A DNA stretch of 64,000 bases, from assembly GCA_043809315.1 (NCBI GenBank), contig JAZDDX010000027.1, positions 6,943-70,942 of the forward strand, read 5' to 3'. The stretch comes from Pseudomonadota bacterium (GTDB taxonomy: Bacteria > Bdellovibrionota_G > JALEGL01 > DATDPG01). A model generated the notes under the pieces. It worked only from the letters and a program-made list of their open reading frames with translations, ran no database searches and was not told the DNA's origin. Shown here piece by piece: positions 1,009 to 60,447 of this stretch (position 1 is its first letter; every line of letters begins with the position of its first letter). The position numbers and the translations under genes were made by a program.

Positions 1009-1293
1009 TTAAAATTCATCCACCGAACGGACGATGTTCGGCAGGAAACTCTCGTCCAGGTCGAGAAGACGGCGGAAGCGGAATTCGGGCGGTTCCACGA
1101 TCGGCTGCACTTCCGGTTTCTTGAGCTTTCCCAGGATGTCGACCTCGTTGAAGTCGTACACCGTTTTTCCGGACCTCACCCGGCGGGGCTCGGTGGGGGA
1201 TCCCAGCTGCGGGTTCGGCTGGTTCTGAGCCAGAACGGTTCCCGCGAGCAGCAAGAAAACGAGAGACGGGACGGTTACGATCCTCCATCTCAT
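1009..1293 (-). CDS. Small secreted protein (94 aa) with an N-terminal signal peptide (VPSLVFLLLAGTVLAQN).
   Basis: The ORF start overlaps the stop of the 1369-aa TPR gene (translational coupling). It has a signal peptide and lies inside the operon. Confidence 0.5.
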   Translation of the reverse strand: MRWRIVTVPSLVFLLLAGTVLAQNQPNPQLGSPTEPRRVRSGKTVYDFNEVDILGKLKKPEVQPIVEPPEFRFRRLLDLDESFLPNIVRSVDEF

Positions 1294-7024: not shown

Positions 7025-7739
7025 AGGGATGCGGGGGGAGGAAGAAGGAGACCCCGAGCAGCATCATGCGGTTGTTGATGATGTGGTAATAAGGTGGTCC
7101 TTCGCGCACGGTGATGTTCCGGAGATCGAGTCGGATCGCGCACCAGTCGTTTAGGTAGACCTTCGTTCCGACCCCCACGTTGAAGCCGAAGTGTTTCTGT
7201 GTATTCATCTTGAAGAGGCCGCCACCGGCCACCATAAAGATGTCGAAGTGATAGATCTTCTTCGAGAAGAGGCTGAACTTCCCGTAAATCGGGGACCAGA
7301 CCAGGCTAGCGATCGCGATATGTTTCATCGGATCGGGGGCCGGGTTGAGCGTCACGGAGCACTTCCCGTTGGCGTTGGGTGTAGCCCCCGTCGGACAGTC
7401 GACGTTCTTCAGGTCGTTGATGATCGGTTTGTTCTGGTGAATCATGAGAGAGTACGACCCCTCGAATCCGAACGTCTCCCGGAAATGATAGGTGTATTTG
7501 AACCCCACCGACTCATACATCATGAACTGGTTGTCGGCGTTGATGCCGCCGTCGAGGGTGAATTCGTGCCGCCCCGTCTTTCGGAACATGCGGCGCTGAA
7601 CGACGTCGATTCCCTCTTTCCGGTAGTTCCCGATCTCACCCTCTTTCGCCGCGTCGGCTGCGTAAAGTGCCCCCGGGCCAAGGGGGCTCCCGACGAGGAA
7701 GAGAAGGAGACCGATCCAGGGGATTTTTCTCATCTTCAT
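7017..7739 (-). CDS. Outer-membrane beta-barrel domain protein.
   Basis: The signal peptide is MRKIPWIGLLLFLVGSPLGPGALYA, so the likely start is at about 7733-7739 (the ORF track extends to 7787). Alternating amphipathic beta-strands run to a C-terminal aromatic strand. It is the first gene of the TPR operon. Confidence 0.7.
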   Translation of the reverse strand: MKMRKIPWIGLLLFLVGSPLGPGALYAADAAKEGEIGNYRKEGIDVVQRRMFRKTGRHEFTLDGGINADNQFMMYESVGFKYTYHFRETFGFEGSYSLMIHQNKPIINDLKNVDCPTGATPNANGKCSVTLNPAPDPMKHIAIASLVWSPIYGKFSLFSKKIYHFDIFMVAGGGLFKMNTQKHFGFNVGVGTKVYLNDWCAIRLDLRNITVREGPPYYHIINNRMMLLGVSFFLPPHPYD

Positions 7740-7875
7740 CACTCTTTTCTGCTGGGGTTCAAGGGTCTTCGCAGGGCTCGTTCCCAAAAAACCATACCAG
7801 AAGGAATCCCCTAGTACAATCAGACACTTCGCTTGTTTTACTTGAGGCCTCCAACTTGAGTGCTATACCCGGGCG

Positions 7876-10878: not shown

Positions 10879-11694
10879 TTGAAGGGATGGTTCGAGAATC
10901 TGACCGGGTTGCGTGACCTGCTCGACATTCTCGTCGTCGCCGTCCTGATCTACTGGCTCCTCCGTCTCATCCGGGGGACGCGCGCCGTCTACATGCTCTT
11001 CGGTCTGTCGGTAGCCGGGGTGATCTACTGGATCTCCTCTTGGTGGGAGCTCTACACCGTGAACTGGATCTTCTCGAGTTTGTTCTCGAGCCTTCTCTTG
11101 ATCGCGGTGGTCATCTTCCAGAACGACATCCGGCGGGCGCTGACGCAGATCGGGCGATCGCCGATCTTCTCGTTGGTCGCCTCTCCCCAGGAATCGATCG
11201 TCGTCGAGGAGCTGGTCAAAGCGTCCACGTCGCTCGCGAACAAGAAGATCGGGGCGTTGATCGTGATCGAACGAGACGCCAACGTTCTCGATTATGTCGA
11301 CGTCGGCGTGCCTCTCGACGCCGTTGTCTCCAAGGAACTCTTGACCAGTGTTTTTCATCCGGTTTCCCCCCTGCATGACGGGGCGGTCATTCTTCAGAAG
11401 GGGCGGATCACGGCGGCAGGCTGTTTTCTCCCGCTCACGATGAACCCGCGGTTCGGCGTCGAGGTGGGGACGCGGCACCGGGCCGCGATCGGGCTCACGG
11501 AGGAAACCGACGCCGCGGTGATCGTGATTTCGGAAGAAAAGGGGTGGATCTCGCTCGCCTCCGAGGGGCGGATCACGCGCGGGGTGGATGGTGCGGCCCT
11601 CCGGAAGATTCTCCACGGATACCTGCGTCCCCAAGGGTCGATCTACCATCGTTTTTGGAGACGGATCCGCCGGATCCGGGGTGAGGTCGCATGA
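10879..11694 (+). CDS. cdaA: Diadenylate cyclase CdaA (DAC domain, membrane-anchored).
   Basis: Three N-terminal TM helices, a DisA_N domain with DGA and RHR motifs (LHDGAVIL, GTRHRAAIG). Conserved cdaA-cdaR-glmM synteny. Confidence 0.9.
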   Translation: MKGWFENLTGLRDLLDILVVAVLIYWLLRLIRGTRAVYMLFGLSVAGVIYWISSWWELYTVNWIFSSLFSSLLLIAVVIFQNDIRRALTQIGRSPIFSLVASPQESIVVEELVKASTSLANKKIGALIVIERDANVLDYVDVGVPLDAVVSKELLTSVFHPVSPLHDGAVILQKGRITAAGCFLPLTMNPRFGVEVGTRHRAAIGLTEETDAAVIVISEEKGWISLASEGRITRGVDGAALRKILHGYLRPQGSIYHRFWRRIRRIRGEVA

Positions 11695-12611
11695 AGGGGT
11701 GGCTTACCGAACATCCGGTGATGAAGATCGTCTCCCTGATCCTTGCGACTTTACTCTGGGCGTTCGTCCGGGGGGAGAGGCGGATGGAAACGTCGATCGA
11801 GGTGCCGGTCCAGGTGCAGAATCTTCCGGAAAAGTTCATGATCATCGGCGAGATCGATCCCTCGATCAACTTGAGGCTCTCGGGTCCCAAGAGCCGGCTG
11901 GGGCGTCTCGATCCGGCGACCTTTCCGCCGTACGAGCTCGATCTGAAGAACGCGCACCGCGGTTCGAACACGTTCTTCATCCGCGAAGGGGCATTCAAGG
12001 TTCCGTACGGGATCACCGTGATGAGGGTCGTTCCCCCGTCGATCCGCGTGGTGGTGGACGAGGCGGAGGAGAAGTTGGTCCGGATCGAACCCCGCTTTGT
12101 GGACGATCCGGACGAGGGATACGAGGTCGAGAGCTACGAGGTGAAACCGGCCTACACGAAGAAGCGCGGTTCCCGGAAGGATCTGGCGGTCACCCCCTAC
12201 ATCTTCACGGAACCCATCAGTCTGGCCGGGCGGCATGGCAGCTTCTCCGGTGAATATTCGCTGACGTCGGCAACCCCCGGTTCCGACGAGGAGAAAAAGG
12301 TCACGCTCCGGGTCGTTGTGAAGGAAAAGGAGCTTTCGAAGATGTTTCGGGAGGTCCCGGTCCGTGTCACCGGGTTCACGAGCGCCGTCAAGGTCGAGCC
12401 GAGGACCGTTTCGATCCGGGCGCGGGGGCCGGCGGGGAAGGTGACGGCATTCGGGGAGGAGCACCTCGAGATCGAGATCGACGCCCTGAAGTTGGGTCTC
12501 GGGAAGACCCGGCAGAGAGTCGTCCACGTGACCGCCAGGCCGCTCAAACATCCCGGCCTTGAGCTGACGGTCGTTCCTGATACTGTCCGGGTCACGCTGC
12601 TGGCGGAATAG
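11691..12611 (+). CDS. cdaR: CdaA regulatory protein CdaR (YbbR-like domains).
   Basis: ATGA overlap with cdaA, an N-terminal TM helix, YbbR-like repeats, and its position between cdaA and glmM. Confidence 0.8.
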   Translation: MKGWLTEHPVMKIVSLILATLLWAFVRGERRMETSIEVPVQVQNLPEKFMIIGEIDPSINLRLSGPKSRLGRLDPATFPPYELDLKNAHRGSNTFFIREGAFKVPYGITVMRVVPPSIRVVVDEAEEKLVRIEPRFVDDPDEGYEVESYEVKPAYTKKRGSRKDLAVTPYIFTEPISLAGRHGSFSGEYSLTSATPGSDEEKKVTLRVVVKEKELSKMFREVPVRVTGFTSAVKVEPRTVSIRARGPAGKVTAFGEEHLEIEIDALKLGLGKTRQRVVHVTARPLKHPGLELTVVPDTVRVTLLAE

Positions 12612-12620
12612 AGGTCATTC

Positions 12621-13988
12621 ATGGCGGAATCGAGGAAGTTGTTCGGCACGGACGGGATCCGGGGCATGGCGAATTCGGAGCCGATGTCGGTCGATACGAT
12701 TCTTCGGGTCGGTCGGGCGGCCGCGTGCGTCTTCCGGCGGTCGGACGACCGGCGCCACTCGGTCGTGATCGGAAAGGATACGAGGCTCTCCGGATACATG
12801 TTCGAGACGGCGCTCGCCTCCGGACTCTGTTCGATGGGGGTGGACGTCATCCTCGTGGGGCCGGTCCCCACCCCTGGAATTGCTTTTCTAACGACGTCGA
12901 TGCGAACCGATGCCGGCGTCGTGATCTCCGCGTCGCACAATCCTTACAATGACAACGGCATCAAGTTCTTCGGCCCCGACGGGTTCAAGCTGGCCGATGC
13001 GGTCGAGCGATCGATCGAGAAGCTCGTCTTCTCGAACGGGGAACTGGACGAGCGGAGGCCGGAGGCTTCCGAGGTGGGGAAGGCGACGCGCCTCGAAGAC
13101 GCCAAGGGGAGGTACATCACGTACCTGAAGCAGAACTTTCCCCAGGAACACTCCCTGGACGGCCTTAAGATCGTCGTCGACTGCGCGCATGGCGCCACTT
13201 ACAAGATTGCGCCGACGGTATTCGCCGAGTTGGGCGCATCGCTTACCAAGATCGGAATCAAGCCGAACGGAAAGAACATCAACCACCACTGCGGAGCTCT
13301 CCACACCGACAAACTGGCGCAGAAGGTGAAAGAGGTCGGCGCCGATCTCGGGATCGCGTTCGACGGCGATGGCGATCGGGCGATCTTCTGCGATGAGAAC
13401 GGACGTGTGTTCGACGGAGACGACGTTCTGGGGATCCTGGCCCGCCCGATGCTGGCGCACGGCGAGCTGGGAAAGGGTGTGGTCGGCACGGTGATGAGCA
13501 ACTTCGGTCTCGAGCAGTATTTCCGTTCGAACCGGATCCCGTTTTTCCGAGCGCCGGTCGGGGATCGATACGTCGTCGAGATGATGAAAGAGGAAGGGTC
13601 GCTGTTCGGAGGGGAGCCCTCGGGGCATCTGGTGAGCCTGCATCGGAGCACCACCGGAGACGGGATCCTTTCGGCGCTTCTCCTTTTGGGAGAACTTCAA
13701 AGGAGCGATCGCCCTCTCTCGTCGTACGCAAAGCTGATCCCGCGATACCCGCAGGTGATCCGGAATGTCGCGGTCAAGACGAAGCCGTCGTTCGAAAAGC
13801 TCCCGCCGGTCGCGAAGTCGATCCGGGAGGCGGAGAGTCGTTTGAGCGGCACCGGGCGGGTCCTGGTCCGGTACTCCGGGACTGAACCGAAGGCGCGCGT
13901 GATGGTGGAAGGGGAGAACGAAAAGATCGTGAAGCGGCTGGCGGACGAGATCGCGGCCGCCATTCAATCGGAAATCGGGGTGGCGTGA
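12621..13988 (+). CDS. glmM: Phosphoglucosamine mutase.
   Basis: GTDGIRG N-terminus, active-site SASHNP, and four phosphohexomutase domains. Confidence 0.95.
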   Translation: MAESRKLFGTDGIRGMANSEPMSVDTILRVGRAAACVFRRSDDRRHSVVIGKDTRLSGYMFETALASGLCSMGVDVILVGPVPTPGIAFLTTSMRTDAGVVISASHNPYNDNGIKFFGPDGFKLADAVERSIEKLVFSNGELDERRPEASEVGKATRLEDAKGRYITYLKQNFPQEHSLDGLKIVVDCAHGATYKIAPTVFAELGASLTKIGIKPNGKNINHHCGALHTDKLAQKVKEVGADLGIAFDGDGDRAIFCDENGRVFDGDDVLGILARPMLAHGELGKGVVGTVMSNFGLEQYFRSNRIPFFRAPVGDRYVVEMMKEEGSLFGGEPSGHLVSLHRSTTGDGILSALLLLGELQRSDRPLSSYAKLIPRYPQVIRNVAVKTKPSFEKLPPVAKSIREAESRLSGTGRVLVRYSGTEPKARVMVEGENEKIVKRLADEIAAAIQSEIGVA

Positions 13989-43299: not shown

Positions 43300-43956
43300 A
43301 TGAATCAGCCTCGTGTCCGCCGTTGGGGCGGCTTGTGCGTGGACGGTTTCCCGTTCATCTTACCTGCCCTTGCGCTCGTGATGATCTTCTCCGGACTTGG
43401 ATTCCTCGGCCCTGCAGTGCTGTTTTTCGTGCTCTTCGTATTCATTGCTTGGTTCTTTCGTGACCCCGAACGATCGGTCCCCTCGGAGACCGGGGCGATC
43501 GTCTCTCCCGCCGACGGAAAGGTGATCGGAGTCTCGACGGTCCCGTACCCGCGGATGCTTGTCGGGCAAGCGACGCGCGTCTCGATCTTCATGTCGGTCT
43601 TCAACGTCCACGTGAACCGGATCCCGTTCGGCGGGATCGTGCGGGACGTGGCGCACAACCCGGGGAAGTTTTTCGCGGCCTATGCCGACAAAGCGTCCGA
43701 ACAGAACGAACAGGCCACGACGCTGATCGACACCGATCGCGGGATCCCGATTCTCGTAGTACAGATCGCCGGGTTGATCGCGCGGCGGATCGCCTGCCGC
43801 GTCTCCCCCGGCGAGCGTGTAACGACTGGGGAGCGATACGGATTGATCCGATTCGGATCGCGTTGCGATCTTTATCTCCCGCCGTCGGCTGACGTTCGTG
43901 TGAAGTCAGGCGATTGCGTCGCGGGGGGAAAAACCGTTCTGGGGGTGTTCCGATGA
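43300..43956 (+). CDS. psd: Phosphatidylserine decarboxylase proenzyme (short archaeal-type).
   Basis: N-terminal TM helix and a short-type PSD domain with the self-cleavage motif FGSR. Confidence 0.85.
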   Translation: MNQPRVRRWGGLCVDGFPFILPALALVMIFSGLGFLGPAVLFFVLFVFIAWFFRDPERSVPSETGAIVSPADGKVIGVSTVPYPRMLVGQATRVSIFMSVFNVHVNRIPFGGIVRDVAHNPGKFFAAYADKASEQNEQATTLIDTDRGIPILVVQIAGLIARRIACRVSPGERVTTGERYGLIRFGSRCDLYLPPSADVRVKSGDCVAGGKTVLGVFR

Positions 43957-44834
43957 AGGACCTGCGCAAGGGAGTCTACATTCTGCCGAACCTGATCACG
44001 TCGACGAGCCTGTTCCTCGGATTCTACGCGATCATCCATGCGATTCAGACGTCGATTTCGGGGGCCCTGAATTATCAGCCGTGCGCTCTGGCGATCATCG
44101 CGTCGGCGGCTTTCGACATGATGGACGGGCGTGTGGCGCGGAAGACGAACACCGCTACAAAGTTCGGCGTCGAATACGATTCGCTGGCCGATCTTGTTTC
44201 GTTCGGCGTAGCGCCGGCCGTGGTGATGTTCCTGTGGACCCTGAACGACCTGGGACGCGCGGGGTGGCTGGCGGCATTCCTGTACATGGCCTGCGGTGCA
44301 CTCCGCCTCGCTCGGTTCAACGTTCAGGTGACCAGCGTCGAGAAGAATTTTTTCCAGGGGCTCCCGATCCCGATGGCGGCGATGATGCTTTCCGGCGCCC
44401 TTCTCATCTGGGAGGGGAAGCCGGTCGGGGAAGTCTCGCTTTTCTTCCCCTTCGACGTGCAGCTCTACCTTCTGGTCTTCACGTACACATTGGGCGCCCT
44501 GATGGTCAGCTCGATCCCGTACCGGAGCTTCAAGTCCCTCAGCCTCACATCCCGGCGTCCGTTTTATTTTCTCGTGTTCGGGGTGATCGGCTTGATGATC
44601 TGGGCGTTCCGGCCGTGGTGGTTCCTCTTCATGCTCGGTTGCCTCTATCTTCTTTCGGGCCCCGTGGAGCGGTACATCCTGCCAAAGCCGATCGGTGCCA
44701 TCCAGCGCGTTCGGAAACGGCGCCGAGTCAACAAGGCCCTCGATCGGATCGACGAGATGTCGACCCTCCCTCCCTCCGCTCCCGATTCCTCGGGTGAAAC
44801 CGACGAAAATGTCCACCCGATTCGCCGCCCTTAA
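43953..44834 (+). CDS. pssA: CDP-diacylglycerol--serine O-phosphatidyltransferase (CDP-alcohol phosphatidyltransferase family).
   Basis: ATGA overlap with psd, the CDP-OH_P_transf motif (DGRVAR...G...DSLAD), and multiple TM helices. Confidence 0.85.
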   Translation: MKDLRKGVYILPNLITSTSLFLGFYAIIHAIQTSISGALNYQPCALAIIASAAFDMMDGRVARKTNTATKFGVEYDSLADLVSFGVAPAVVMFLWTLNDLGRAGWLAAFLYMACGALRLARFNVQVTSVEKNFFQGLPIPMAAMMLSGALLIWEGKPVGEVSLFFPFDVQLYLLVFTYTLGALMVSSIPYRSFKSLSLTSRRPFYFLVFGVIGLMIWAFRPWWFLFMLGCLYLLSGPVERYILPKPIGAIQRVRKRRRVNKALDRIDEMSTLPPSAPDSSGETDENVHPIRRP

Positions 44835-46801: not shown

Positions 46802-47293
46802 TTACTGAGTCGTCGCGTTGAAATCCCCCCAGGCCGACCCCCCCTCGGCCAAGGTGACATTGAACGTGCCGGAGGCCGACTTCAGTTGGTTGGCGGCATC
46901 GAGAACGATCGATGCGAGCGTCATCGCGCCGGTTGCACCGGTCATGGAAACGGTTTGGGGGGAGAGCCCCATCCTCACCGTGATCGAGGCGGTGAAGGAG
47001 TTTTTTCCGCTCGCGTCGATGTTGTAAGCCTTCGCGGTCGAGCCGCCGAGAGTCAGGGTCATCACATCCCCATCAGGACTCAAGAAGGCGAGGACCAAAG
47101 CCCCGTTCGCGTACGAGGGGCGGAACTCCGTGAAGTAGACCGTCGCGGTTGTTGACTGGTTTCCTTCATTGTCGTTGATCGGCGTGACGTTCGCCGTGAT
47201 CGATGCGATGAGAAGGGGTTGAGTGCAGGGGGCGAGGAAGGGGAGCGTCGCCCACAAAAGAACCGTTCCGACCTTGCGGGGGATCACACCCAT
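46802..47293 (-). CDS. Hypothetical secreted/lipoprotein (Ser/Thr-rich beta-type).
   Basis: Signal peptide with LAPC lipobox. Start at the MGVIPRK ATG. Confidence 0.5.
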   Translation of the reverse strand: MGVIPRKVGTVLLWATLPFLAPCTQPLLIASITANVTPINDNEGNQSTTATVYFTEFRPSYANGALVLAFLSPDGDVMTLTLGGSTAKAYNIDASGKNSFTASITVRMGLSPQTVSMTGATGAMTLASIVLDAANQLKSASGTFNVTLAEGGSAWGDFNATTQ

Positions 47294-47309
47294 AGTATAC
47301 CAGAAGCCG

Positions 47310-48083
47310 ATGACAAAACGACGGGGCCCCCCTCCCGGGACGACACGCACGATCCGTCTCGACGTCCAGTACGAGGGGACCGCCTACGCCGGCTTCCAGT
47401 GCCAGGCAAACGGGGAATCGGTCCAGGCGCTCCTCCAGCGGGCTCTCGTGCGGGTGGCCTCCGAGAAGGTGACCCTCTTCGCGTCGAGCCGAACCGACGC
47501 AGGGGTTCATGCGCGTCAGCAGGTGGTTTCGTTTTCGTTGGGCGGATCGCGGACGCCGGTTCGGGCGTTCGTGGAAGGGACGAACGCCCTCCTCCCGGAG
47601 GATATCCGAGTGGTGGAGGCGGCCGAGGTCGATCTTTGGTTCCACGCGAACCAGGACGCGATCGAAAAAACCTACCGGTATTTTTTCTATTCGGGACGGG
47701 TCCCTTCCGTTTTCCTTCGGCGCTTCGCCTTGCACCTTCGGAAGGAACCGGATTGGCAGGCAGCCGAAGAGGCCGCCAAGCTTCTGGTCGGGAAACACGA
47801 CTTCGCGGCGTTCCGGACGCGCGGAACTCTCACCAAGAGTTCGGTTCGAACCGTTCTCTCCACCCGTTTTAAAGAAGATTCGTACGGACTCCGGTTCTTC
47901 GAAATCCGGGCGGATGGATTCCTGAAACACATGGTTCGGAACATCGTCGGGACGCTTCTCGAGATCGGGCACGGAAAGCGGGAAGTCGGTTCGATCTCCG
48001 CGATTCTCCGTTCGAAAGACCGCCGCTTCGCCGGGGCGACCGCTCCGCCACATGGACTCTTTCTCTGGCGTGTGGTGTACTAG
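47310..48083 (+). CDS. truA: tRNA pseudouridine(38-40) synthase.
   Basis: TruA catalytic Asp motif (SSRTDAGVHA) and overall fold. Start at the MTKRRG ATG. Confidence 0.85.
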   Translation: MTKRRGPPPGTTRTIRLDVQYEGTAYAGFQCQANGESVQALLQRALVRVASEKVTLFASSRTDAGVHARQQVVSFSLGGSRTPVRAFVEGTNALLPEDIRVVEAAEVDLWFHANQDAIEKTYRYFFYSGRVPSVFLRRFALHLRKEPDWQAAEEAAKLLVGKHDFAAFRTRGTLTKSSVRTVLSTRFKEDSYGLRFFEIRADGFLKHMVRNIVGTLLEIGHGKREVGSISAILRSKDRRFAGATAPPHGLFLWRVVY

Positions 48084-48088
48084 CGCCC

Positions 48089-48199
48089 ATGGCGATCAAG
48101 ATCAAACGCGGGAAGACTCGGAATCGGAAAAAGACCAGTCGCCTGAAGGCGCAGTTGAAGCGGAAACAGACGAAACGCCGGGCGCGTTGGTACAAGTAG
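48089..48199 (+). CDS. Unannotated 36-aa highly basic small protein (MAIKIKRGKTRNRKKTSRLKAQLKRKQTKRRARWYK).
   Basis: The ATG lies 5 nt after the truA stop. Composition and length are similar to the 35036..35146 small ORF. There is no strong SD. Confidence 0.3.
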   Translation: MAIKIKRGKTRNRKKTSRLKAQLKRKQTKRRARWYK

Positions 48200-48223: not shown

Positions 48224-49156
48224 TCAGTGAATCAGTTTTTTCCGCCGGAGCGCGATGAAGTACTTCCAGCCGTAGATAAACCAGAATCGTTTCTCGCGGG
48301 GGGTTAGTTCGATCCGGATCCCTTGCGTCCGTTCGATCTTCTGGATCAGGTAGTCGAGCCAGTTTTCGACGGTGAACATCCCCTTCGGCCAGCGGAGCTG
48401 CGCACGGAGGCGGCTTTTTGAGAGAAAGATGCGAGTGGTGAATCTCCCGATGGTCTCACGCAGGAAAGCAGGCTTCTTGAAGAAGGCACCGTCCCGTTCC
48501 TCGGCCCAGCTGTGGAGGATCAAGCGATACGCCGTGCGATAGAACTCCTCGTCCGACCGAAAGAGGCGTTCGATCTTGTCGGCCGCTTCGACCCGAACGT
48601 CTCCGTAATAACTCAGTCGAAGCGCTTCCAGGATGAACGTATCGAGGGTGAAGTTCTCGGGAAGGAGGTGGCGGGTTTGGGCTGCCACCGTTCTCATCGC
48701 CGCAGCTTGCGCCGCGACGATTTCCTCGAGGCCTCCTGGGTCACGCGTCCAGGCCGCGCCCATCCGTTTCGAGAAGCGTCCGAGTTGGTACACATCGCGA
48801 GCCCTGGGGGAGGTGTCGTGTGCAAGGTCGCCGAAGCTCAAGACGTTGTATTTGGCCGTCCGGCCGTCGACGGTGAAATGATAGATGCTGGGGGGGAGGA
48901 TCCAGTTCACCACTGTGTGCAGAAGAGATCGGTGGAAATCGCGGTACCGCCGGACGAGAACGAAAAAGTCAGGGGTGGAGGTGGAGGAGCGAGTCACTGA
49001 GCTCAAGCAGGAGCCGTACACCAAGATCGCATCGGCTCGTTCACCCACCAAGCTGCGCAGGGAACTCAGGAACGGCTCGACGACTGCCGGCTCGAAGGAG
49101 GTGAGCTGGTTCCGGATGAGCGACTCCAGCGGACTTGTCGGTTCAAGCTCCGGCAA
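48224..49156 (-). CDS. Tam41/Mmp37-like nucleotidyltransferase (putative phosphatidate cytidylyltransferase-like).
   Basis: Motifs aligning to yeast Tam41: ILVYGSCLS...TPDFFVLV (Tam41 VFGYGSGVF...PQIDIILGV) and EALRLSYYGDVRV (Tam41 ALSYAGDIRY). Confidence 0.55.
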   Translation of the reverse strand: MPELEPTSPLESLIRNQLTSFEPAVVEPFLSSLRSLVGERADAILVYGSCLSSVTRSSTSTPDFFVLVRRYRDFHRSLLHTVVNWILPPSIYHFTVDGRTAKYNVLSFGDLAHDTSPRARDVYQLGRFSKRMGAAWTRDPGGLEEIVAAQAAAMRTVAAQTRHLLPENFTLDTFILEALRLSYYGDVRVEAADKIERLFRSDEEFYRTAYRLILHSWAEERDGAFFKKPAFLRETIGRFTTRIFLSKSRLRAQLRWPKGMFTVENWLDYLIQKIERTQGIRIELTPREKRFWFIYGWKYFIALRRKKLIH

Positions 49157-50183
49157 CGCCGTTCCGTGTGGTATTCTTCACCTTGTACATCGCTTCGTCC
49201 GCGAGACGGATCAACTCGTCTTTGGTCTGTGCATCCTCCGGGAACGTGGCAACGCCGAAGCTGGCGGTGAAATGAACATTTAAGCCCTTGTCGGTCAGGA
49301 ACATGTTCCCCTCGACCGCTTTCCGGAGGCGTTCGGCAACCATGATCGCCGCCGGTTTTTCAGTTTCAGGCAGGAGAATAACGAACTCATCCCCTCCGTA
49401 TCTCGCGCCGTAATCGACGCTGCGGATATGCTTCTTTAAGACCTGGGCGGTTTCTCGGAGAAGTTGCGATCCGTGGATGTGTCCCCAGGTGTTGTTCATC
49501 TCTTTGAAGTGATCGAGATCGAGGAAGATCATCGAGAAATGTTTCTTGTATCGGGCCGCACGTGCAACCTCGGTCTCCAGGAGCGTGTGGAGGTGGCGGA
49601 CATTAAACAAGCTCGTCAAATCGTCGGTGATCGTGAGCTCCTGGACCCGCTGGAAGTTCCGGACGTTTTCAATCGCGATCGCAGAGTAGTCGGCGATCAC
49701 CGCCAGCGTCGTCAAATCCTCCTCCCCGAACGGGACCGTCCCATTCCCTTTGCGGCGGATTTCGATCACCCCCAGCGTCTTCCCTTTGCTCCGGATCGGA
49801 ACACAAATCAGGGAAAGCTCCGGATCGGTTGGAAGAATGTCCTGAGGCGGCGTGTTCTTTTTCTCCTTGGAAAGGTCCGGGAGGAGAACCGGTTTGGCGG
49901 CCTGAGCCGCCCAGCCGGGAATCCCTTGCCCGAGCTGGACCACTTTGGAGCGGTCGACTGCGGGGTCGTTGATCAGGATCTCATACTTGAGCGTCATCTC
50001 CCGTTCGTCCAACATCAAGAGGGACCAGGAGGTGGGGCTCAAGAGTTCGGAGATCTTCTGAAGGATGACGCGAAGGACCTCTTTGATGTCGAGAGTCGAG
50101 GTGAGGGTCTTGCCGATTTCGCTTAAGATCCGCAGCGCATCGACGGTCCTCTTCAACTCCTCGAGAAGTTTGTGTCCTTCCAT
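49143..50183 (-). CDS. GAF domain-containing diguanylate cyclase (GGDEF).
   Basis: N-terminal GAF followed by a GGDEF domain with intact RYGGDEF and the RxxD I-site region. Start at the MEGHKLLEEL ATG. Confidence 0.85.
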   Translation of the reverse strand: MEGHKLLEELKRTVDALRILSEIGKTLTSTLDIKEVLRVILQKISELLSPTSWSLLMLDEREMTLKYEILINDPAVDRSKVVQLGQGIPGWAAQAAKPVLLPDLSKEKKNTPPQDILPTDPELSLICVPIRSKGKTLGVIEIRRKGNGTVPFGEEDLTTLAVIADYSAIAIENVRNFQRVQELTITDDLTSLFNVRHLHTLLETEVARAARYKKHFSMIFLDLDHFKEMNNTWGHIHGSQLLRETAQVLKKHIRSVDYGARYGGDEFVILLPETEKPAAIMVAERLRKAVEGNMFLTDKGLNVHFTASFGVATFPEDAQTKDELIRLADEAMYKVKNTTRNGVAGA

Positions 50184-50227
50184 CCGGTTCGTCCTTCGGT
50201 TATGGATGACTCTAACGTGGAGGCGAA

Positions 50228-50815
50228 ATGAAGCAAGTCGGACGTATCGTCCTGGCGTCGGCCTCTCCAAGGAGGAAGGAGTTTTTCGATCTCCTGGGGA
50301 TCCGGGTGGAGGTGATGCCGGCCAACGTTCCGGAGGGGGAATCGGGCGGAAACCCGCAACGGTTGCCGCTTCGGAACACGGTGGAAAAGCTCAAAGCGGT
50401 CCGTACGAAGCTGGGGCCGGGGTTCGCCGGATGGCTGATCGGTGCCGACACGGTGGTTGCGCTCGGTCGGAGAGTCTTGGGAAAACCGAAGAACCGGCAG
50501 GAAGCGAAACGGATGCTGACCGAGCTGTCGGGGAATCGCCACAAGGTCTTTACCGGGTATCGGGTTCAGAAGGCGAGCGGTCAGTACCGGGAAGGGGTGG
50601 TCGAGACGATGGTCGAGATGGTGCCGATGACCGAGGCTCAGATCGACTGGTACGTCGAAAGCGGCGAGCCGGACGACAAGGCGGGGGCGTACGCGATCCA
50701 GGGGAAGGGGGGGGCGTTCGTCCGGACAATCGTCGGGTCGTATTCGAACGTCGTGGGTCTTCCGCTGGTAGAAGTCTTGACAGCACTGCGTGAGCTGAAG
50801 GCGATCGAGGACTAG
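50228..50815 (+). CDS. maf: Maf-like nucleoside triphosphate pyrophosphatase.
   Basis: ILASASPRR N-terminal signature and Maf fold. Confidence 0.85.
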   Translation: MKQVGRIVLASASPRRKEFFDLLGIRVEVMPANVPEGESGGNPQRLPLRNTVEKLKAVRTKLGPGFAGWLIGADTVVALGRRVLGKPKNRQEAKRMLTELSGNRHKVFTGYRVQKASGQYREGVVETMVEMVPMTEAQIDWYVESGEPDDKAGAYAIQGKGGAFVRTIVGSYSNVVGLPLVEVLTALRELKAIED

Positions 50816-53911: not shown

Positions 53912-54766
53912 GTGGTGCTCCTGGACGGCAAGGCGTTCGCAAAAAAAATCCGAAGCGATCTTACGACCCGGATCCGGACGTTTTCGGCCCGGACCGGGGT
54001 CATTCCTGGGTTGGCGACGCTCTTGGTCGGCGACAATGCCGCATCCAAGGTCTACGTCGGAAGCAAAGTCAAAACGTGCGGCGAGGTGGGGATCCATTCC
54101 CGGAAGATCGAGTTGTCCGCCGACTTGGCGGAAGGGTCGCTTATCAAAGAGATCGAAGCTCTCAACCGCGATCCCGCGATCCACGGGATCCTCGTCCAGC
54201 TCCCCCTGCCGAAGCAGATCCGCCCGGAGCGGATCCTGGATGCCGTCGATCCTTCGAAAGATGTCGATGGCTTTCATGTCATCAACGCCGGGCGGCTTGC
54301 GACCGGGCAGCCGGGGTTTGTTCCCTGCACCCCCCTGGGAATCGTCCGCCTTCTGGAGGAATACAAAGTGCCGATCGAGGGGAAGAGGGCGGTGGTCGTG
54401 GGAAGGAGCAACATCGTCGGGAAGCCGGTGGCGCAGCTCCTGTTGAATCGCCACGCGACCGTGACAATCTGTCACTCGCGTACGATAGATCTCCCGGCGG
54501 TCTGTCGCGAAGCCGACATCCTGATCGCGGCGATCGGGAAGGCCGAGGTCGTCCGCGGTGATTGGATCCAGCCGGGGGCGGCGGTGGTCGACGTCGGGAT
54601 CAACCGAAACCCGGACGGGACGTTGACGGGGGATGTAAAGTTTTCGGAGGCATCGGAGCGGGCAGGATGGCTGACCCCGGTTCCGGGGGGGGTGGGACCC
54701 TTGACGATAGCGATGCTTCTCTCAAACACGCTGGAAGCGGCGGAGAAATGGATGGAGCGGAAATGA
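53912..54766 (+). CDS. folD: Bifunctional methylenetetrahydrofolate dehydrogenase/cyclohydrolase.
   Basis: N-terminus LLDGKAFAKKIR..., THF_DHG_CYH domains, and GRSNIVGKP. Confidence 0.9.
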   Translation: MVLLDGKAFAKKIRSDLTTRIRTFSARTGVIPGLATLLVGDNAASKVYVGSKVKTCGEVGIHSRKIELSADLAEGSLIKEIEALNRDPAIHGILVQLPLPKQIRPERILDAVDPSKDVDGFHVINAGRLATGQPGFVPCTPLGIVRLLEEYKVPIEGKRAVVVGRSNIVGKPVAQLLLNRHATVTICHSRTIDLPAVCREADILIAAIGKAEVVRGDWIQPGAAVVDVGINRNPDGTLTGDVKFSEASERAGWLTPVPGGVGPLTIAMLLSNTLEAAEKWMERK

Positions 54767-55860
54767 CGGAGCTGAAGCGGACGCCGTTGTACGAACGGCA
54801 CAAGAGTCTGGGGGGGAAGATCGTCCCGTTCGCAGGATGGGAGATGCCGCTCGAGTACAGCGGGATCTTGAAAGAGCACGAAGCGGTCCGGACTGCGGTC
54901 GGGATCTTCGATGTGAGCCACATGGGGGAGATCGAGATCCGGGGGAAGCAGGCACTGGAGTTCTGCCAGAAAGTCTCCACCAACGACGCCTCCGCCTTGA
55001 AGCCGGGAAAAGTCCAGTACTCGGCGATCCTGAATGCCGAGGGGGGGATCGTCGATGACTGCACGCTCTATCGGATCGGGGAGGAACATTTCCTTTTTGT
55101 CGTGAATGCCTCGCGGAAGGAGAACGTGCTTCGCTGGTTCGAGGGACACCCGATGGAGGGGGCGAAGGTCGAGGACCGGAGCGACGATTACGGGTTGCTC
55201 GCCCTTCAGGGGAAAAAGTCCGAAGATCTCTTGAGCCGTCTCGTCCATCGCGATCTTTCGACGGTCGGATACTACGAGTTCACGTGGACCGAACTCTCCG
55301 GTGCCGCAGTGATGATCTCTCGGACCGGATACACGGGCGAGGACGGGTTCGAGATCTATCTCCCGTGGGAGAAAACCGTCGAGATTTGGGATCTCCTGAT
55401 GAAGGAAGGGAGTTCGGTCGGGATCACGCCGATCGGTCTGGGCGCGCGCGATACGCTTCGTCTGGAGATGGGGTACTCGCTCTACGGAAACGAGTTGAAC
55501 GAACACACGACTCCTCTCGAGGCGGGGTTGGCCTGGATCGTCAAGATGGACAAAGGAACATTTTTCGGCCGGAACCGTCTGGTTGAGCAGAAAGAGAAGG
55601 GGCTCACGCGGAGGATCCGCGGCATCAAGATGATCGACCGCGGGATCCCGCGTCCGCACTACGAGATCTATTCCGCCGGCAGGAAGATCGGGGAGGTTAC
55701 GAGCGGGACCTTTTCCCCGACCCTCAAGCAGGGGGTGGGGTTGGCGATGCTTCCGGCGGAGTTGAAGGAAGGGAACGAACTCTCGGTTCGGATCCGCGAG
55801 AAGGATAACCGGGCGGCGATCACGAAACCTCCGTTTGTCGCAGGGTCGGTGAAAAAATAA
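54763..55860 (+). CDS. gcvT: Glycine cleavage system aminomethyltransferase T.
   Basis: Start at MTELKRTPLYERH (ATGA overlap with folD). GCV_T domain. Confidence 0.9.
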   Translation: MTELKRTPLYERHKSLGGKIVPFAGWEMPLEYSGILKEHEAVRTAVGIFDVSHMGEIEIRGKQALEFCQKVSTNDASALKPGKVQYSAILNAEGGIVDDCTLYRIGEEHFLFVVNASRKENVLRWFEGHPMEGAKVEDRSDDYGLLALQGKKSEDLLSRLVHRDLSTVGYYEFTWTELSGAAVMISRTGYTGEDGFEIYLPWEKTVEIWDLLMKEGSSVGITPIGLGARDTLRLEMGYSLYGNELNEHTTPLEAGLAWIVKMDKGTFFGRNRLVEQKEKGLTRRIRGIKMIDRGIPRPHYEIYSAGRKIGEVTSGTFSPTLKQGVGLAMLPAELKEGNELSVRIREKDNRAAITKPPFVAGSVKK

Positions 55861-55895
55861 ATCCCTTGCGGGGGTAAAAGTTCTGTGATGAGAAA

Positions 55896-56297
55896 TTGAC
55901 CATGGAAATCCCGGATGATCTTCGTTACACGCGCGAACACGAGTGGGCGCGCATTGATCTGAAACAGAAAACCGCGACCATCGGCCTCACGGACTATGCC
56001 CAGGAGCATTTGGGGGACGTGGTGCACGTCGATCTCCCCGAGGAGGGGGCGGAGCTTGCGCGCGAGGAGCCGTTCGGGAGCGTCGAGTCGGTGAAGGCGG
56101 TTTCCGATGTGTTTGCCCCGATCTCCGGAAAGGTGATCGAGATCAATGATGACCTTCTCGATTCCCCGGAAATGATGAACGAAGATCCGTACGGTGAGGC
56201 GTGGCTGGTGAAGGTCAAGTTCACCGACACCAAGGGGATCGATAAACTGATGGACGCTGCGGCATACAAAAAATACTGCGAATCGCAGGAAGAATAA
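55896..56297 (+). CDS. gcvH: Glycine cleavage system H protein.
   Basis: Lipoyl-lysine motif region (ESVKAVSD) and YTKEHEW N-terminus. Confidence 0.9.
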   Translation: MTMEIPDDLRYTREHEWARIDLKQKTATIGLTDYAQEHLGDVVHVDLPEEGAELAREEPFGSVESVKAVSDVFAPISGKVIEINDDLLDSPEMMNEDPYGEAWLVKVKFTDTKGIDKLMDAAAYKKYCESQEE

Positions 56298-57634
56298 TGC
56301 GTTACATTCCCCTGACCGGCGCCGACCGGGAGGCGATGCTCAGGGAGATCGGCGTCCAATCGATCGACGACCTCTTCCGTTCGATTCCGGCGTCGTCCCG
56401 GAAGAAGAGCGCCCCGGAACTGCCGGCGGCGAAGACCGAATCGGAACTTCTCGGATATTTTCACGCTCTGGCCCAGAAGAACCTCCCCAACGGGGAGAAA
56501 TGGCTCTCGTTTCTCGGGGGAGGGGCGTACGACCATTTCGTGCCGACGATCGTCGACGCGCTCTCCAGCCGCGGGGAGTTCCTGACGGCATACACGCCGT
56601 ACCAGCCGGAGGTGAGTCAGGGAACCTTGCAGGCGATCTTCGAATTTCAATCCCTGGTCGCGAATCTCTTCGGTCTCGATTGCGCGAATGCCTCGATGTA
56701 CGACGGGGCGTCGGCTGCAGCCGAGGCGGTTTTGATGGCGATGCGGATCAAGGATGGGAACCGCATTTTTCTTTCGAAGGGACTCCATCCGGAATACCAG
56801 CAGGTGATTCGGGCCTATCTCCGGGAAACGGAAGTAGAGATTGTCGAGCTCGAACTCGATGCTTCCGGTCGGACGGTTCTTCCGACGCTTCCGACCGGCA
56901 CCCTGGCGGGGGTGATATCGCAACCGAACTTCTTCGGCGTCATCGAGAACCTGTCTCCGCTGGCTGACTCCGTTCATGCGGGCGGCGGTTTGTTGATCAC
57001 CGCGACTCCGGAGGGGATGGCGTTCGGCGCAATCCGGGATCCCGGTTCGGAGGGGGCCGACATCGTCGCCGGGGAGGGGCAGTCGTTCGGAAACTACCTG
57101 AATTACGGCGGGCCGTACGTCGGACTGCTCGCGACGAAACGGGAATATGTGCGGCAGATTCCGGGGCGGCTGGTCGGAAGGACCGTCGACCGCGAGGGAA
57201 AAGAGGGGTACGTGTTGACGCTCGCGACCCGCGAACAACACATCCGCCGCGAGAAGGCGACCTCCAACATCTGCACGAATCACTCGCTCTGCGCCCTGCG
57301 AGCCTGCATCTATCTCGCGACGGTCGGGGAGCGCGGACTGCGGGAGATCGCGCTCCGAAATATGTGGGCGGCACACAAGCTGCGGACGAGTCTGCTGGAA
57401 CTGAAAGGGGTCGAGGCGGTCTACAAGGGGCCGGTCTTCAACGAGTTCACGGTTCGGCTCCCGATTTCAACCGAGGCGTTTCTCTCGAAGATGGAAGCAG
57501 AAAAAGTCCTCGGGGGGATTCCGATCTCGAAATGGGATCAGGCCCGGACCCACGATCTCCTGATTGCCGTCACCGAGACGAAGAGCCCGGACGATCTGGA
57601 TCGCTACGTTGCCGCGGCTAGGAAGGCGCTATGA
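56297..57634 (+). CDS. gcvPA: Glycine dehydrogenase (decarboxylating) subunit 1.
   Basis: GDC-P N-terminal half. Start overlaps the gcvH stop. Confidence 0.9.
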   Translation: MRYIPLTGADREAMLREIGVQSIDDLFRSIPASSRKKSAPELPAAKTESELLGYFHALAQKNLPNGEKWLSFLGGGAYDHFVPTIVDALSSRGEFLTAYTPYQPEVSQGTLQAIFEFQSLVANLFGLDCANASMYDGASAAAEAVLMAMRIKDGNRIFLSKGLHPEYQQVIRAYLRETEVEIVELELDASGRTVLPTLPTGTLAGVISQPNFFGVIENLSPLADSVHAGGGLLITATPEGMAFGAIRDPGSEGADIVAGEGQSFGNYLNYGGPYVGLLATKREYVRQIPGRLVGRTVDREGKEGYVLTLATREQHIRREKATSNICTNHSLCALRACIYLATVGERGLREIALRNMWAAHKLRTSLLELKGVEAVYKGPVFNEFTVRLPISTEAFLSKMEAEKVLGGIPISKWDQARTHDLLIAVTETKSPDDLDRYVAAARKAL

Positions 57635-59148
57635 AGGAACCGAACGAGATCCAGCGGGCGTTCCATCACGTCTCGAATCTCTTCGAGAAGAGCCACACGA
57701 AAGGGGACGGGGAGCGGAACGGGTATGTTCCTCCGATCCCGGCTGAGGAACTTTCAAAGGTCGTTCCGTCGAACTTGCTGCGGACGAAGGTTCCCAACTT
57801 TCCTCAACTCTCCGAAGTGGAGGTGGTCCGCCATTTCACGCGTCTTTCCCAGCTCAACTTTGGGATCGACAGCGGGACGTATCCCCTCGGTTCGTGCACG
57901 ATGAAATACAACCCGAGGGTCAACGAACGGGTCGCGTCGGAGGAAGGGTTCACTTCGCTCCATCCGTACACGCCGGAGAAGTATGCCCAGGGGGCGCTGG
58001 CGCTGATGTACGAACTCCAGCAGGCGTTGATCACGATCACCGGACTCAAGGGATGCAGTCTCCAGCCGGCGGCCGGTGCGCATGGCGAACTGGTCGGCGT
58101 CCAGATGATCCGGGCGTATCACCGGAAAAAGGGGCAGAAGCAGCGGACGACGATCCTCGTCCCCGATTCCGCGCACGGCACCAACCCGGCGAGTGCCGCA
58201 CTCTGCGGTCTCAAGGTGAAGCAACTCGCCTCAGGACCAAATGGGATGCTCGAAGTCGCCGATGTCGAGAAGGCGATGGACGACACGGTGGCCGGGATCA
58301 TGGTCACCGTTCCGAACACTCTGGGGATCTTCGAAGAGAAGATCATCGAGATCGCGAGCTTGGTTCACGAGCGGGGTGGGTTGGTTTACTGCGATGGCGC
58401 GAACCTGAACGCCCTCGTCGGCAAGGTCGATTTCCGCGCGATCGGGGTCGACGTCATGCACATTAACCTCCACAAGACCTTTTCCACGCCGCACGGTGGA
58501 GGGGGTCCGGGGGCGGGGCCGGTGGTGGTTTCCGAGAAACTCCTCGATTTCCTGCCGATTCCGCTGGTCCGGAAGCGGGGAGAAGATACCTATTTTCTCG
58601 ACGATACGGTTTCACACACAATCGGGCGGTTCCGGTCGTTCTACGGGAATTTCGGGGTCCTGGTTCGGGCGCTTTGTTACATCTATGCGTTCGGGCCGGA
58701 GGGGATCTCGGAGATTGCGAACGGGTCGGTGCTGAACGCGAACTACCTCAAGACGAAGCTGAAAGCTTCGTATCACCTTCCGTACTCGACGCCGACGCTC
58801 CACGAGGCGGTGTTCACCGACAAATGGCAGCAGGCGAACCACGTTTCCACGCTCGACGTCGCCAAGCGGATGATGGATTTCGGGATCCATCCGCCGACGG
58901 TCTATTTCCCTCTCGTGGTGCGCGGAGCGCTCATGATCGAGCCTACGGAGACGGAGTCGAAGGAAGATTTAGACCGATTCGTAGCGATCCTCACCCTGAT
59001 CGCGGAGGAAGCGAAAACGAATCCGGAGAAGCTAACCGGTGCACCCCATAACCTGGGAATCCGCAGGCTCGACGAGACGAGGGCTGCGCGGGAACCGATC
59101 CTCACCTGGAACCCGCCGGGCGCGAAACCGGTTCGAAAGTCTCCGTAG
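57631..59148 (+). CDS. gcvPB: Glycine dehydrogenase (decarboxylating) subunit 2 (PLP-binding).
   Basis: ATGA overlap with gcvPA. GDC-P C-terminal half with the PLP Lys region (NLHKTFSTPHGGGGPG). Confidence 0.9.
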   Translation: MKEPNEIQRAFHHVSNLFEKSHTKGDGERNGYVPPIPAEELSKVVPSNLLRTKVPNFPQLSEVEVVRHFTRLSQLNFGIDSGTYPLGSCTMKYNPRVNERVASEEGFTSLHPYTPEKYAQGALALMYELQQALITITGLKGCSLQPAAGAHGELVGVQMIRAYHRKKGQKQRTTILVPDSAHGTNPASAALCGLKVKQLASGPNGMLEVADVEKAMDDTVAGIMVTVPNTLGIFEEKIIEIASLVHERGGLVYCDGANLNALVGKVDFRAIGVDVMHINLHKTFSTPHGGGGPGAGPVVVSEKLLDFLPIPLVRKRGEDTYFLDDTVSHTIGRFRSFYGNFGVLVRALCYIYAFGPEGISEIANGSVLNANYLKTKLKASYHLPYSTPTLHEAVFTDKWQQANHVSTLDVAKRMMDFGIHPPTVYFPLVVRGALMIEPTETESKEDLDRFVAILTLIAEEAKTNPEKLTGAPHNLGIRRLDETRAAREPILTWNPPGAKPVRKSP

Positions 59149-59214: not shown

Positions 59215-60447
59215 TTGGATATCTATATTTGGTTTGTGATGACCGAGTTTCCTCGACTGCTCTCCCGGTGGGCCTTCTCTGAGATGCAGAGCAAGAGCCT
59301 TGTGCCGATGGTCTGGATAACGGGCGCACGGCAAGTGGGCAAGACTTGGATGGTTTCAAAACTTCCGGGGAACTATTTCAACTGGGATACGGTCGAGACC
59401 CGCAAAGCATTCGCCAAGGACCCGTACTTCTTTCGCAGCGAACGGCGGCTGGTCATCTTCGATGAGATCCATAAACGACGGGACTGGAAGAAGATTCTGA
59501 AGGGATACTACGATTCAGCCGATCGGCGGGAAAATTTCCTCGTCACGGGCTCCGGGAAAATGGATCAGTATCTAAGGGGAGGTGACAGCCTTCAGGGGAG
59601 GTACGATCTGTACCATCTGTGGCCGATCACGTGGGATGAGTTCAAGAGATTTAGGGGAAAACTAGCGTCGCCGCGAAACTGGGCGGAATGGGAGCCCGGC
59701 GACCCGACCGGGTCGGATCGGGACCTGATTCGTCTGGGCGGCTTTCCGAAGCCCCTGCTTCAAGGAAGTGAGCAGCGGCTGCGAAGATGGCAGGATCAGT
59801 ACCTGGACCGCTTGGTTCGAGAAGATACGCGCGATTTCAGTGCCGTTCAGCGCCTCGATCAGTTGGACCTGCTGGCGAGAATCCTGCCGGACCGGGTCGG
59901 ATCTCCGATTTCGGTCAAGAGCCTCTCAGAGGACATCGAGTCAAGTACGATCGGCGTGAAATCGTGGCTCCGCCTTTTCGAAGTGCTCTATCTGGGGTTC
60001 CGGGTTCATCCCTACCATCGGAAAATCCATCGGGCCGTGAAAAAAGAACCCAAGTGGTACTTCTATCAATGGACCTTCGTCGAAAATCCCGCGGCACGTT
60101 TTGAAAACTATCTAGCCGTCCAGCTTGCGGCGGCATGTTCCGCCTGGTCCGAGCAGGGGTTCGGCCGCTGGGAACTTTTCTATCTCCGAGATCAGGATCG
60201 GAGGGAGGTCGATTTCCTTCTCTGCAGGGATCTTAAACCCCAGGTACTGGTGGAAGCGAAGACATCCGAACAGTCTTGGCCCTCCGCCTTGCACTTCTAT
60301 TGCAAGAAACTCCAAGTCCCGGGATTTCTGGTCTATCCGGGCGGCACGGACAAGAAGACGGATGTGGTTCGGCGAGTCGCGCCGACAGGTTGGACGGTTC
60401 CCTCGTCTCGGTTTCTCTCGGGTTTGCTGCTGGAGAAGACTCAATAA
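59215..60447 (+). CDS. AAA-domain ATPase with C-terminal DUF4143-like domain (standalone ATP-binding protein).
   Basis: P-loop GARQVGKT and Walker B VIFDEIH. The C-terminal region is typical of the DUF4143 family. Confidence 0.65.
   Translation: MDIYIWFVMTEFPRLLSRWAFSEMQSKSLVPMVWITGARQVGKTWMVSKLPGNYFNWDTVETRKAFAKDPYFFRSERRLVIFDEIHKRRDWKKILKGYYDSADRRENFLVTGSGKMDQYLRGGDSLQGRYDLYHLWPITWDEFKRFRGKLASPRNWAEWEPGDPTGSDRDLIRLGGFPKPLLQGSEQRLRRWQDQYLDRLVREDTRDFSAVQRLDQLDLLARILPDRVGSPISVKSLSEDIESSTIGVKSWLRLFEVLYLGFRVHPYHRKIHRAVKKEPKWYFYQWTFVENPAARFENYLAVQLAAACSAWSEQGFGRWELFYLRDQDRREVDFLLCRDLKPQVLVEAKTSEQSWPSALHFYCKKLQVPGFLVYPGGTDKKTDVVRRVAPTGWTVPSSRFLSGLLLEKTQ

Follow-up and report, generated by a model that had tools for sequence, protein, structure and literature searches.

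A Tam41-like gene and its family assignment

We analyzed a 64-kb stretch (the window, 60% GC) of contig JAZDDX010000027.1 from a metagenome-assembled genome (MAG) of a Pseudomonadota bacterium. An open reading frame (ORF) at exactly 48224..49156 on the minus strand codes for a 310-aa protein that probably is a Tam41-type synthase of cytidine diphosphate-diacylglycerol (CDP-DAG), not related to CdsA. Translation starts at TTG and the stop codon is at 48224-48226. The initial annotation had listed the ORF at these coordinates. It is real, with a codon-position GC typical of coding sequence (GC3 0.76 versus GC2 0.45). The product is identical to the NCBI MAG protein MFH1263402.1 (locus tag V1495_08200, Pseudomonadota bacterium), which is labelled 'hypothetical protein', and no NCBIfam model matches it. 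Directly upstream on the same strand is a GAF-GGDEF diguanylate cyclase gene (49143..50270, Pfam and NCBIfam matches). On the plus strand are psd (43300-43956, PF02666) and pssA (43914-44834, PF01066), both also matching NCBIfam equivalogs.

The sole Pfam match of the window protein is PF09139, Tam41_Mmp37 (E=1.9e-7, 31.2 bits, gathering cut-off 24). The initial annotation had named this family, and the match is significant, though partial and marginal in score, with residues 95-219 aligned to profile positions 90-212 of 322. Most homologs carry a precomputed PF09139 match and one JGI homolog already bears the family name. With either the family profile or the structure, similarity of the window protein to Tam41 is far above chance. 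The profile is required, as phmmer run on PDB sequences with the single sequence did not retrieve Tam41. The protein consists of a nucleotidyltransferase (NTase) domain (residues ~1-137, 48746..49156), delimited by the AlphaFold2 (AF2) secondary structure, the alignment to Tam41 structures and invariant columns, and a helical, winged-helix-like domain with a beta-hairpin in the AF2 model (residues ~138-285, 48302..48745). This two-domain fold fits the solved Tam41 structures better than any other family. The next-best structural neighbours are the ANT(4')/ANT(9)/Lnu-type antibiotic nucleotidyltransferases and HalB, in which a Pol-beta-like NTase core is followed by a helical domain as in the window protein. 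We reject an antibiotic NTase on the fold scores and on the missing carboxylates, the full set not being present. A better fit to some other NTase family, the outcome that would have spoken against the initial annotation, was not seen, as the Tam41 structures are the top fold match. The window gene is a genuine but divergent and compact bacterial member of the Tam41/Mmp37 family.

Tam41 is an unusual Pol-beta-type NTase that keeps only one of the three canonical carboxylates (PMC2794190; PMC11646218). The same one-carboxylate site, G48-S49 and D63, is found in the window protein and in all 37 aligned relatives. YGS (residues 47-49, 49010-49018) and D63-F-F (D63 at 48968-48970) are invariant, and position 65, the site of the second carboxylate, is F, Y or V but never acidic. 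The NTase domain also contains K102-Y103 (48848-48853), D121 (48794-48796) and GRFSK (48767-48781). Both Tam41 motifs recognized in the initial annotation are present: YGS with the following TPDFFV, which contains D63, and LSYYGDVRVE (residues 181-190, 48587-48616) in the helical domain. The latter, as LSYxG[DE]xRxE (S182, Y183, D/E186, R188, E190), aligns with LSYLGDIRM...E of Schizosaccharomyces pombe Tam41 and LSYSGDTRM...E of the Firmicutes enzyme.

In human TAMM41, CTP is bound by K109, R133 and K136, and Y110 and P137 are equivalent to S. pombe Y157 and P184 (PMC8935507). We mapped these residues through a profile alignment to the Tam41 structures, in which adding 6 to the chain index reproduces S. 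pombe Y157 and P184. K109, R133 and K136 correspond to K102 (conserved in 37/37 sequences), R127 (37/37) and K130 (32 K, 5 Q) of the window protein. For the winged-helix pocket residues T199 and N208 of the human enzyme no reliable mapping onto the window protein was obtained.

Bacterial Tam41 homologs have already been noted 'in firmicutes and proteobacteria', and one of them, FbTam41 from a Firmicutes bacterium (PDB 7ECD), is described there, citing Kimura et al. 2022 in J Biochem, as making CDP-DAG (PMC11646218). FbTam41 is from a different phylum than the window protein, shares ~17% identity with it and has different gene contexts. The NTase insert is shorter in the window protein, and its highly basic, conserved C-terminal ~100 residues (SRxRAxLRWPK, KIERT, W297) have no sequence match in 7ECD. 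The mitochondrial Tam41/TAMM41 enzymes (PF09139; S. pombe 6IG2/6IG4) are eukaryotic, have a presequence and are dedicated to cardiolipin synthesis. At 393 aa the S. pombe protein is also larger.

The C-terminal region carries two basic motifs specific to the family, SRLRAQLRWPK (48383-48415) and KIERT (48326-48340), both in the helical domain. S248, R255, K258, K273, R276 and W297 are invariant across the alignment, and R251 and the W-P between R255 and K258 belong to the strongly conserved motifs as well. The window protein has no transmembrane segment (maximum 19-residue Kyte-Doolittle mean 0.98). Residues 231-310 contain 19 K/R versus 6 D/E (net +13) and 14 aromatics, with FWFIYGWKYFIALRRKKLIH as the last helix. 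The cationic, aromatic C-terminal helix PREKRFWFIYGWKYFIALRRKKLIH (48227..48301) is a predicted peripheral membrane anchor. Tam41 is a peripheral membrane protein held by a positively charged amphipathic C-terminal helix (PMC7018664). The composition of the window protein's C-terminus is compatible with that description, without sequence homology to that part of Tam41, and by analogy its last helix may plausibly dock the protein on the membrane.

Domain fusions and gene neighbourhoods

A word-indexed search found 55 relatives of the window protein. In an exhaustive profile search, 2089 cluster representatives (clusters at 50% identity) matched at E<=1e-3, 1040 at E<=1e-10 and 481 at E<=1e-30, and most of the top 150 matches span the full length, C-terminal region included. 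We also scanned genomes with a pattern-limited search run with a closer 18-sequence alignment, the full 37-sequence alignment being too diverse. The 15 loci found are all from MAGs, labelled Bdellovibrionota/Bdellovibrionales, Polyangia/Haliangium/Myxococcota, Gemmatimonadaceae or unclassified 'Proteobacteria'. The closed 2.9-Mb Bdellovibrionota chromosome OY764265.1 carries an ortholog that is 52% identical. With tblastn, members were found on plasmids of Pseudomonas sp. JS425, Pseudomonas sp. BYT-5 and Diaphorobacter sp. JS3051. Those of JS425 and JS3051, which PGAP labels 'hypothetical protein', belong to the family over their full length by profile comparison (hhalign: probability 99.9% and 99.8%; E=1e-32 and 5e-29).

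The long members of the family are domain fusions. In five independent cluster representatives a PlsC-type acyltransferase (PF01553) precedes the Tam41-like module, with HX4D and FPEGHRS motifs in both of the fusions whose sequences were read. This signal is robust. Two further fusions are to a DAGK_cat lipid kinase, and one is to a CDP-alcohol phosphatidyltransferase (CDP-OH_P_transf) with a complete DVLDGRIAR...G...D...D motif. The latter, being alone, is to be weighed together with four cases in which the genes are neighbours. The PlsC fusions sit in a sub-branch with GRL[FS]Q, 29-32% identical to the window protein. The GRFSK sub-branch of the window protein includes a DAGK_cat fusion (P0130, 36% identity) and a member encoded beside a CDP-OH_P_transf gene (P0044, 38%). 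The fusion proteins are from short contigs and are singletons or near-singletons. Other fusion partners of the Tam41-like module are cytochrome P450 (two cases), an endonuclease/exonuclease/phosphatase (EEP) domain (one) and a MobA/IspD-like NTase (one); these proteins are P0129 (1152 aa), P0141 (756 aa), P0155 (653 aa) and P0162 (594 aa).

Lipid enzymes recur in the neighbourhoods of unfused members, for which we refer to our numbered loci. DAGK_cat genes lie directly upstream on the same strand in L009 and L011 (two in tandem in each) and in L010, and one gene away in L004. A CDP-OH_P_transf gene follows by 10 nt at the P0044 locus and by 1 nt at the P0054 locus, the latter with a weak DAGK_cat match next door. 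On plasmid pPNP1 of Pseudomonas sp. JS425 the Tam41-like gene begins 15 nt after a gene for an 'acylglycerol kinase family protein', the two products being the pair WP_038409909.1 / WP_038409910.1, and the island (L021, 65823-80662) also encodes LptF/G, a fatty acyl-AMP ligase and a CDP-alcohol phosphatidyltransferase. On pDCB2 of Diaphorobacter sp. JS3051 (L022, 55009-69713) it shares 4 nt with the end of a CDP-alcohol phosphatidyltransferase gene, and genes for a diacylglycerol (DAG) kinase, a lysophospholipid acyltransferase and a desaturase are nearby. Both plasmids have IncP replicons. The module is thus joined repeatedly to makers of phosphatidate (PA), namely lysophosphatidate acyltransferase and DAG kinase, and to users of CDP-DAG, which brackets the step from PA and CTP to CDP-DAG. 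In full-text literature searches, neither the physiological role of this bacterial branch nor its gene clusters or fusions were the subject of any paper found.

Taken together, the two plasmid islands hold LptF/LptG-like permeases, one or two CDP-alcohol phosphatidyltransferases, DAG/acylglycerol kinase, lysophospholipid acyltransferase, fatty acid desaturase, fatty acyl-AMP ligase, phosphocholine cytidylyltransferase and a metallophosphoesterase. This lipid-synthesis and export island has the look of a mobile module that supplies an accessory membrane lipid. In divergent branches, two loci are apparent specialised-lipid clusters. The P0054 locus (JGI sample 3300056388) reads polyketide synthase (PKS), beta-ketoacyl synthase III (KAS III), P450, phosphopantetheinyl transferase (PPTase), Tam41-like protein, CDP-alcohol phosphatidyltransferase and the weak DAGK_cat. 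The P0044 locus (JGI sample 3300047160) reads radical SAM protein, Tam41-like protein, CDP-alcohol phosphatidyltransferase, class III aminotransferase and GFO/IDH/MocA oxidoreductase. The branch of P0046 and P0048 (L004, 7716-10004; L020, 5384-8004) has a gene for a methyltransferase dependent on S-adenosylmethionine that overlaps the Tam41-like start by 4 nt, and divergently upstream a gene for the prolipoprotein diacylglyceryl transferase Lgt. Both loci encode an acyl-CoA/AMP ligase near the Tam41-like gene, and a patatin phospholipase is encoded in L020 as well.

At the window locus the stop codon of the cyclase gene and the TTG start of the Tam41-like gene overlap by 14 nt (junction 49143-49156), and the two therefore probably form one operon with translational coupling. 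The GGDEF motif of the cyclase is intact, and the protein also carries an RxxD I-site. The pair is kept in seven genomes (L001/L006, L002, L005, L007, L008 and L017; 40-56% identity), and is absent from the Oligoflexia relative L003 and from all other branches examined. A terminator-like hairpin at 48174..48188 on the minus strand, 36 nt downstream of the Tam41-like stop, was found by a consensus scan. It possibly marks the operon end, but such sites are not above shuffle expectation (2 found versus 2.8 expected).

In the clade the pair lies in a block of conserved gene order: gcvTHP, folD, divIVA, yggS and maf, then the GGDEF and Tam41-like genes, then truA, asd, an M28 peptidase gene, pssA and psd. 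As the initial annotation stated, psd and pssA are real and close by; we measure the distance as 3.4 kb. They belong to the phosphatidylethanolamine pathway, where CDP-DAG is used, and are outside the operon of the Tam41-like gene. They are on the opposite strand with four genes between, and although syntenic in L001 and L002, neither is within 10 kb in L003. We therefore reject their proximity as a functional link; their strand and their absence in L003 make it weak evidence of coupling. Their presence does show that the organism needs CDP-DAG. The two ORFs as listed overlap by 43 nt and the actual pssA start is probably further downstream. A 99-aa DUF465 ORF (43000 onward, plus strand) ends exactly at the psd start (43299/43300), and small ORFs hold the same position in L001 and L002. 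Between asd and truA, a 182-aa ORF with no Pfam match (46802-47350, minus strand) overlaps the longest truA ORF. ORFs of similar size are close to truA in L001 and L002.

Proposed reaction, relation to CdsA and alternatives

In bacteria, CdsA alone is normally credited with making CDP-DAG. To our knowledge, Tam41 is usually treated as mitochondrial, with one bacterial homolog studied biochemically. The initial annotation had raised the possibility of an alternative CDP-DAG synthase, and homology, fold, the conserved CTP-binding residues and the family-wide linkage to PA-making and CDP-DAG-using enzymes support it, in a protein without transmembrane segments. We infer that the enzyme is most likely soluble and that its cationic, aromatic C-terminus would attach it to the inner membrane on the cytoplasmic side, where it would transfer CMP from CTP onto phosphatidate, yielding CDP-DAG and pyrophosphate. 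Catalysis would take place in the one-carboxylate Tam41 NTase site, with D63 acting with Mg2+ and K102, R127 and K130 holding CTP. PssA, encoded nearby, is one of the CDP-alcohol phosphatidyltransferases that would draw on this CDP-DAG.

The window gene is a new divergent member of a known enzyme family and not a new kind of system, and the finding is a refinement of annotation, with an in silico functional case that is stronger than usual. It places the gene in a large, divergent bacterial Tam41 branch (at least 481 representatives at E<=1e-30) whose members the NCBI pipeline still calls 'hypothetical'. From repeated fusion or adjacency to PlsC, DAG-kinase-family proteins and CDP-alcohol phosphatidyltransferases, the branch receives an annotation that is specific and can be tested. 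These associations also hint at a peripheral module from DAG through PA to CDP-DAG in Bdellovibrionota, Myxococcota, Gemmatimonadota and IncP plasmids.

Several observations weigh against this assignment. Identity to the solved Tam41 proteins is only 17-19%. Sequence similarity ends near residue 212. No characterised protein offers a counterpart to the conserved C-terminal third, one reason being that the crystallised S. pombe construct is missing the C-terminal 74 residues. The sequence by itself does not tell the specificity for nucleotide and lipid. Both the PlsC and the CDP-OH_P_transf fusions belong to a sub-branch with no more than 29-32% identity to the window protein, and the latter fusion is represented by a singleton on a contig of 1.8 kb. 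The GGDEF cyclase, which is not a lipid enzyme, is the sole tight partner within the window. The P450, EEP and MobA/IspD-like fusions do not fit a simple scheme from PA to CDP-DAG. Ceramide or sphingosine are substrates of DAGK_cat kinases too, and certain members of the family are in PKS or P450 clusters or fused to P450, so the lipid substrate may differ in some branches.

That the window enzyme itself activates another lipid phosphate has a small chance of being correct. Such a Tam41-fold NTase could use ceramide-1-phosphate, lysophosphatidate or the phosphate of an ether-lipid or polyketide-derived glycerolipid, and would feed a specialised CDP-alcohol phosphatidyltransferase and not bulk phospholipid synthesis. 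Bdellovibrionota and Myxococcota are known to make sphingolipids and ether lipids, and DAGK_cat (PF00781), which recurs as a partner, takes in a broad range of lipid kinases. The PKS-KAS III-P450-PPTase cluster, the members beside aminotransferase and oxidoreductase genes and the fusions to P450 or EEP phosphatase would also suit this explanation, as would the plasmid islands, where LptF/G, desaturase and fatty acyl-AMP ligase suggest a special lipid. However, the five independent PlsC-type fusions point to phosphatidate itself and the mapped Tam41 CTP-binding residues are conserved. In the clade of the window gene no specialised neighbours are found, only housekeeping genes and psd-pssA. It is highly improbable that the protein is a catalytically inactive or regulatory NTase-fold protein, for example a partner of the GAF-GGDEF cyclase that responds to nucleotides or cyclic di-GMP (c-di-GMP). 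The coupling to the cyclase gene, conserved in seven genomes, would fit such a protein, and Mmp37 was once predicted to be inactive as it has one of the three canonical NTase carboxylates (PMC2794190). Yet Tam41 is active with exactly such a site, the mapped nucleotide-binding residues are invariant or nearly so, and in Oligoflexia and all other branches the GGDEF partner is missing, with lipid enzymes there instead.

How a Tam41-type CDP-DAG synthase would stand to CdsA is a separate question. The CdsA family (PF01148, PS01315) makes CDP-DAG and pyrophosphate from CTP and phosphatidate, the reaction we propose for the window protein, and supplies the same users, PssA and PgsA. Its fold is polytopic and integral to the membrane, and unrelated to the window protein, which has no PF01148 match. 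The initial annotation had found no canonical cdsA in the window and this holds. The PROSITE PS01315 signature, S-x-[LIVMF]-K-R-x4-K-D-x-[GSA]-x2-[LIF]-[PGS]-x-H-G-G-[LIVMF]-x-D-R-[LIVMFT]-D (in short KDx5PGHGGx2DRxD), is absent from the window protein and from all six frames of the window. Pfam, applied to most predicted window genes of >=150 aa (about 45), shows housekeeping genes but no cdsA, uppS, dxr or rseP; the usual uppS-cdsA-dxr-rseP neighbourhood is absent. The signature is also absent from six frames of loci L001-L019, at 4-21 kb each uninformative at genome scale. The window represents 64 kb of a genome that probably has some 3 Mb, the chromosome of the related L006 being 2.9 Mb long. 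With so small a fraction of each genome covered, absence of the signature is expected by chance.

It is unlikely that the window gene substitutes for a missing cdsA, and very improbable that it is the organism's only CDP-DAG synthase, CdsA having been replaced. No cdsA is found in the window or within 10 kb of the homolog in 20/20 metagenomic and MAG loci (L001-L020), and the gene lies in a clade-conserved housekeeping block near psd-pssA, which need CDP-DAG. Set against this are the tiny fraction of each genome that the sequences represent and the near-universal presence of CdsA in bacteria as far as we know. Pseudomonas and Diaphorobacter, which carry plasmid members, presumably have a chromosomal cdsA, so the family can be accessory, which favours a second synthase. 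In E. coli, yeast Tam41p relieves phosphatidate accumulation upon CdsA depletion and rescues the pH-sensitive cdsA8 mutant, but a cdsA knockout does not regain growth with it, since the MPIase glycolipid requires CdsA as well, an essential second function beyond Tam41p (PMC6362211). A second synthase is much more likely than a sole one. The most likely role for the window gene is therefore that of a second, peripheral CDP-DAG synthase alongside CdsA, co-expressed in its clade with the GAF-GGDEF cyclase. For this Bdellovibrionota-like lineage, we think it improbable that the Tam41-type enzyme and not CdsA is the main or only CDP-DAG synthase, with its output tied to c-di-GMP through the cyclase coupling. 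Were that so, a bacterial phospholipid pathway would be built on a 'mitochondrial' enzyme. In a milder form of this reading, the family would define a widespread bacterial route from a soluble lipid kinase through a Tam41-like enzyme to a CDP-alcohol phosphatidyltransferase, which would recycle diacylglycerol or build special lipids. Lineages without cdsA, should any exist, would have implications for where the mitochondrial enzyme came from and for the universality assumed for CdsA.

Other features of the window

The glycine-cleavage genes gcvT-H-P are at 54562-59148. Just past them a gene for an AAA_14/DUF4143 ATPase (59215-60447, plus strand) breaks the housekeeping stretch. The minus-strand region 1290-7787 holds the gene for a 1369-aa protein rich in tetratricopeptide repeats with a weak YfiO/BamD-like stretch and, upstream of it on the same strand, two overlapping ORFs of 542 and 256 aa with no Pfam match. 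At 10879-13988 on the plus strand is a classic cyclic di-AMP synthase cluster, an operon of cdaA (DAC domain with CdaA_N), ybbR/cdaR and a glmM-like phosphoglucosamine mutase gene, which is preceded by tilS-like and ftsH genes.
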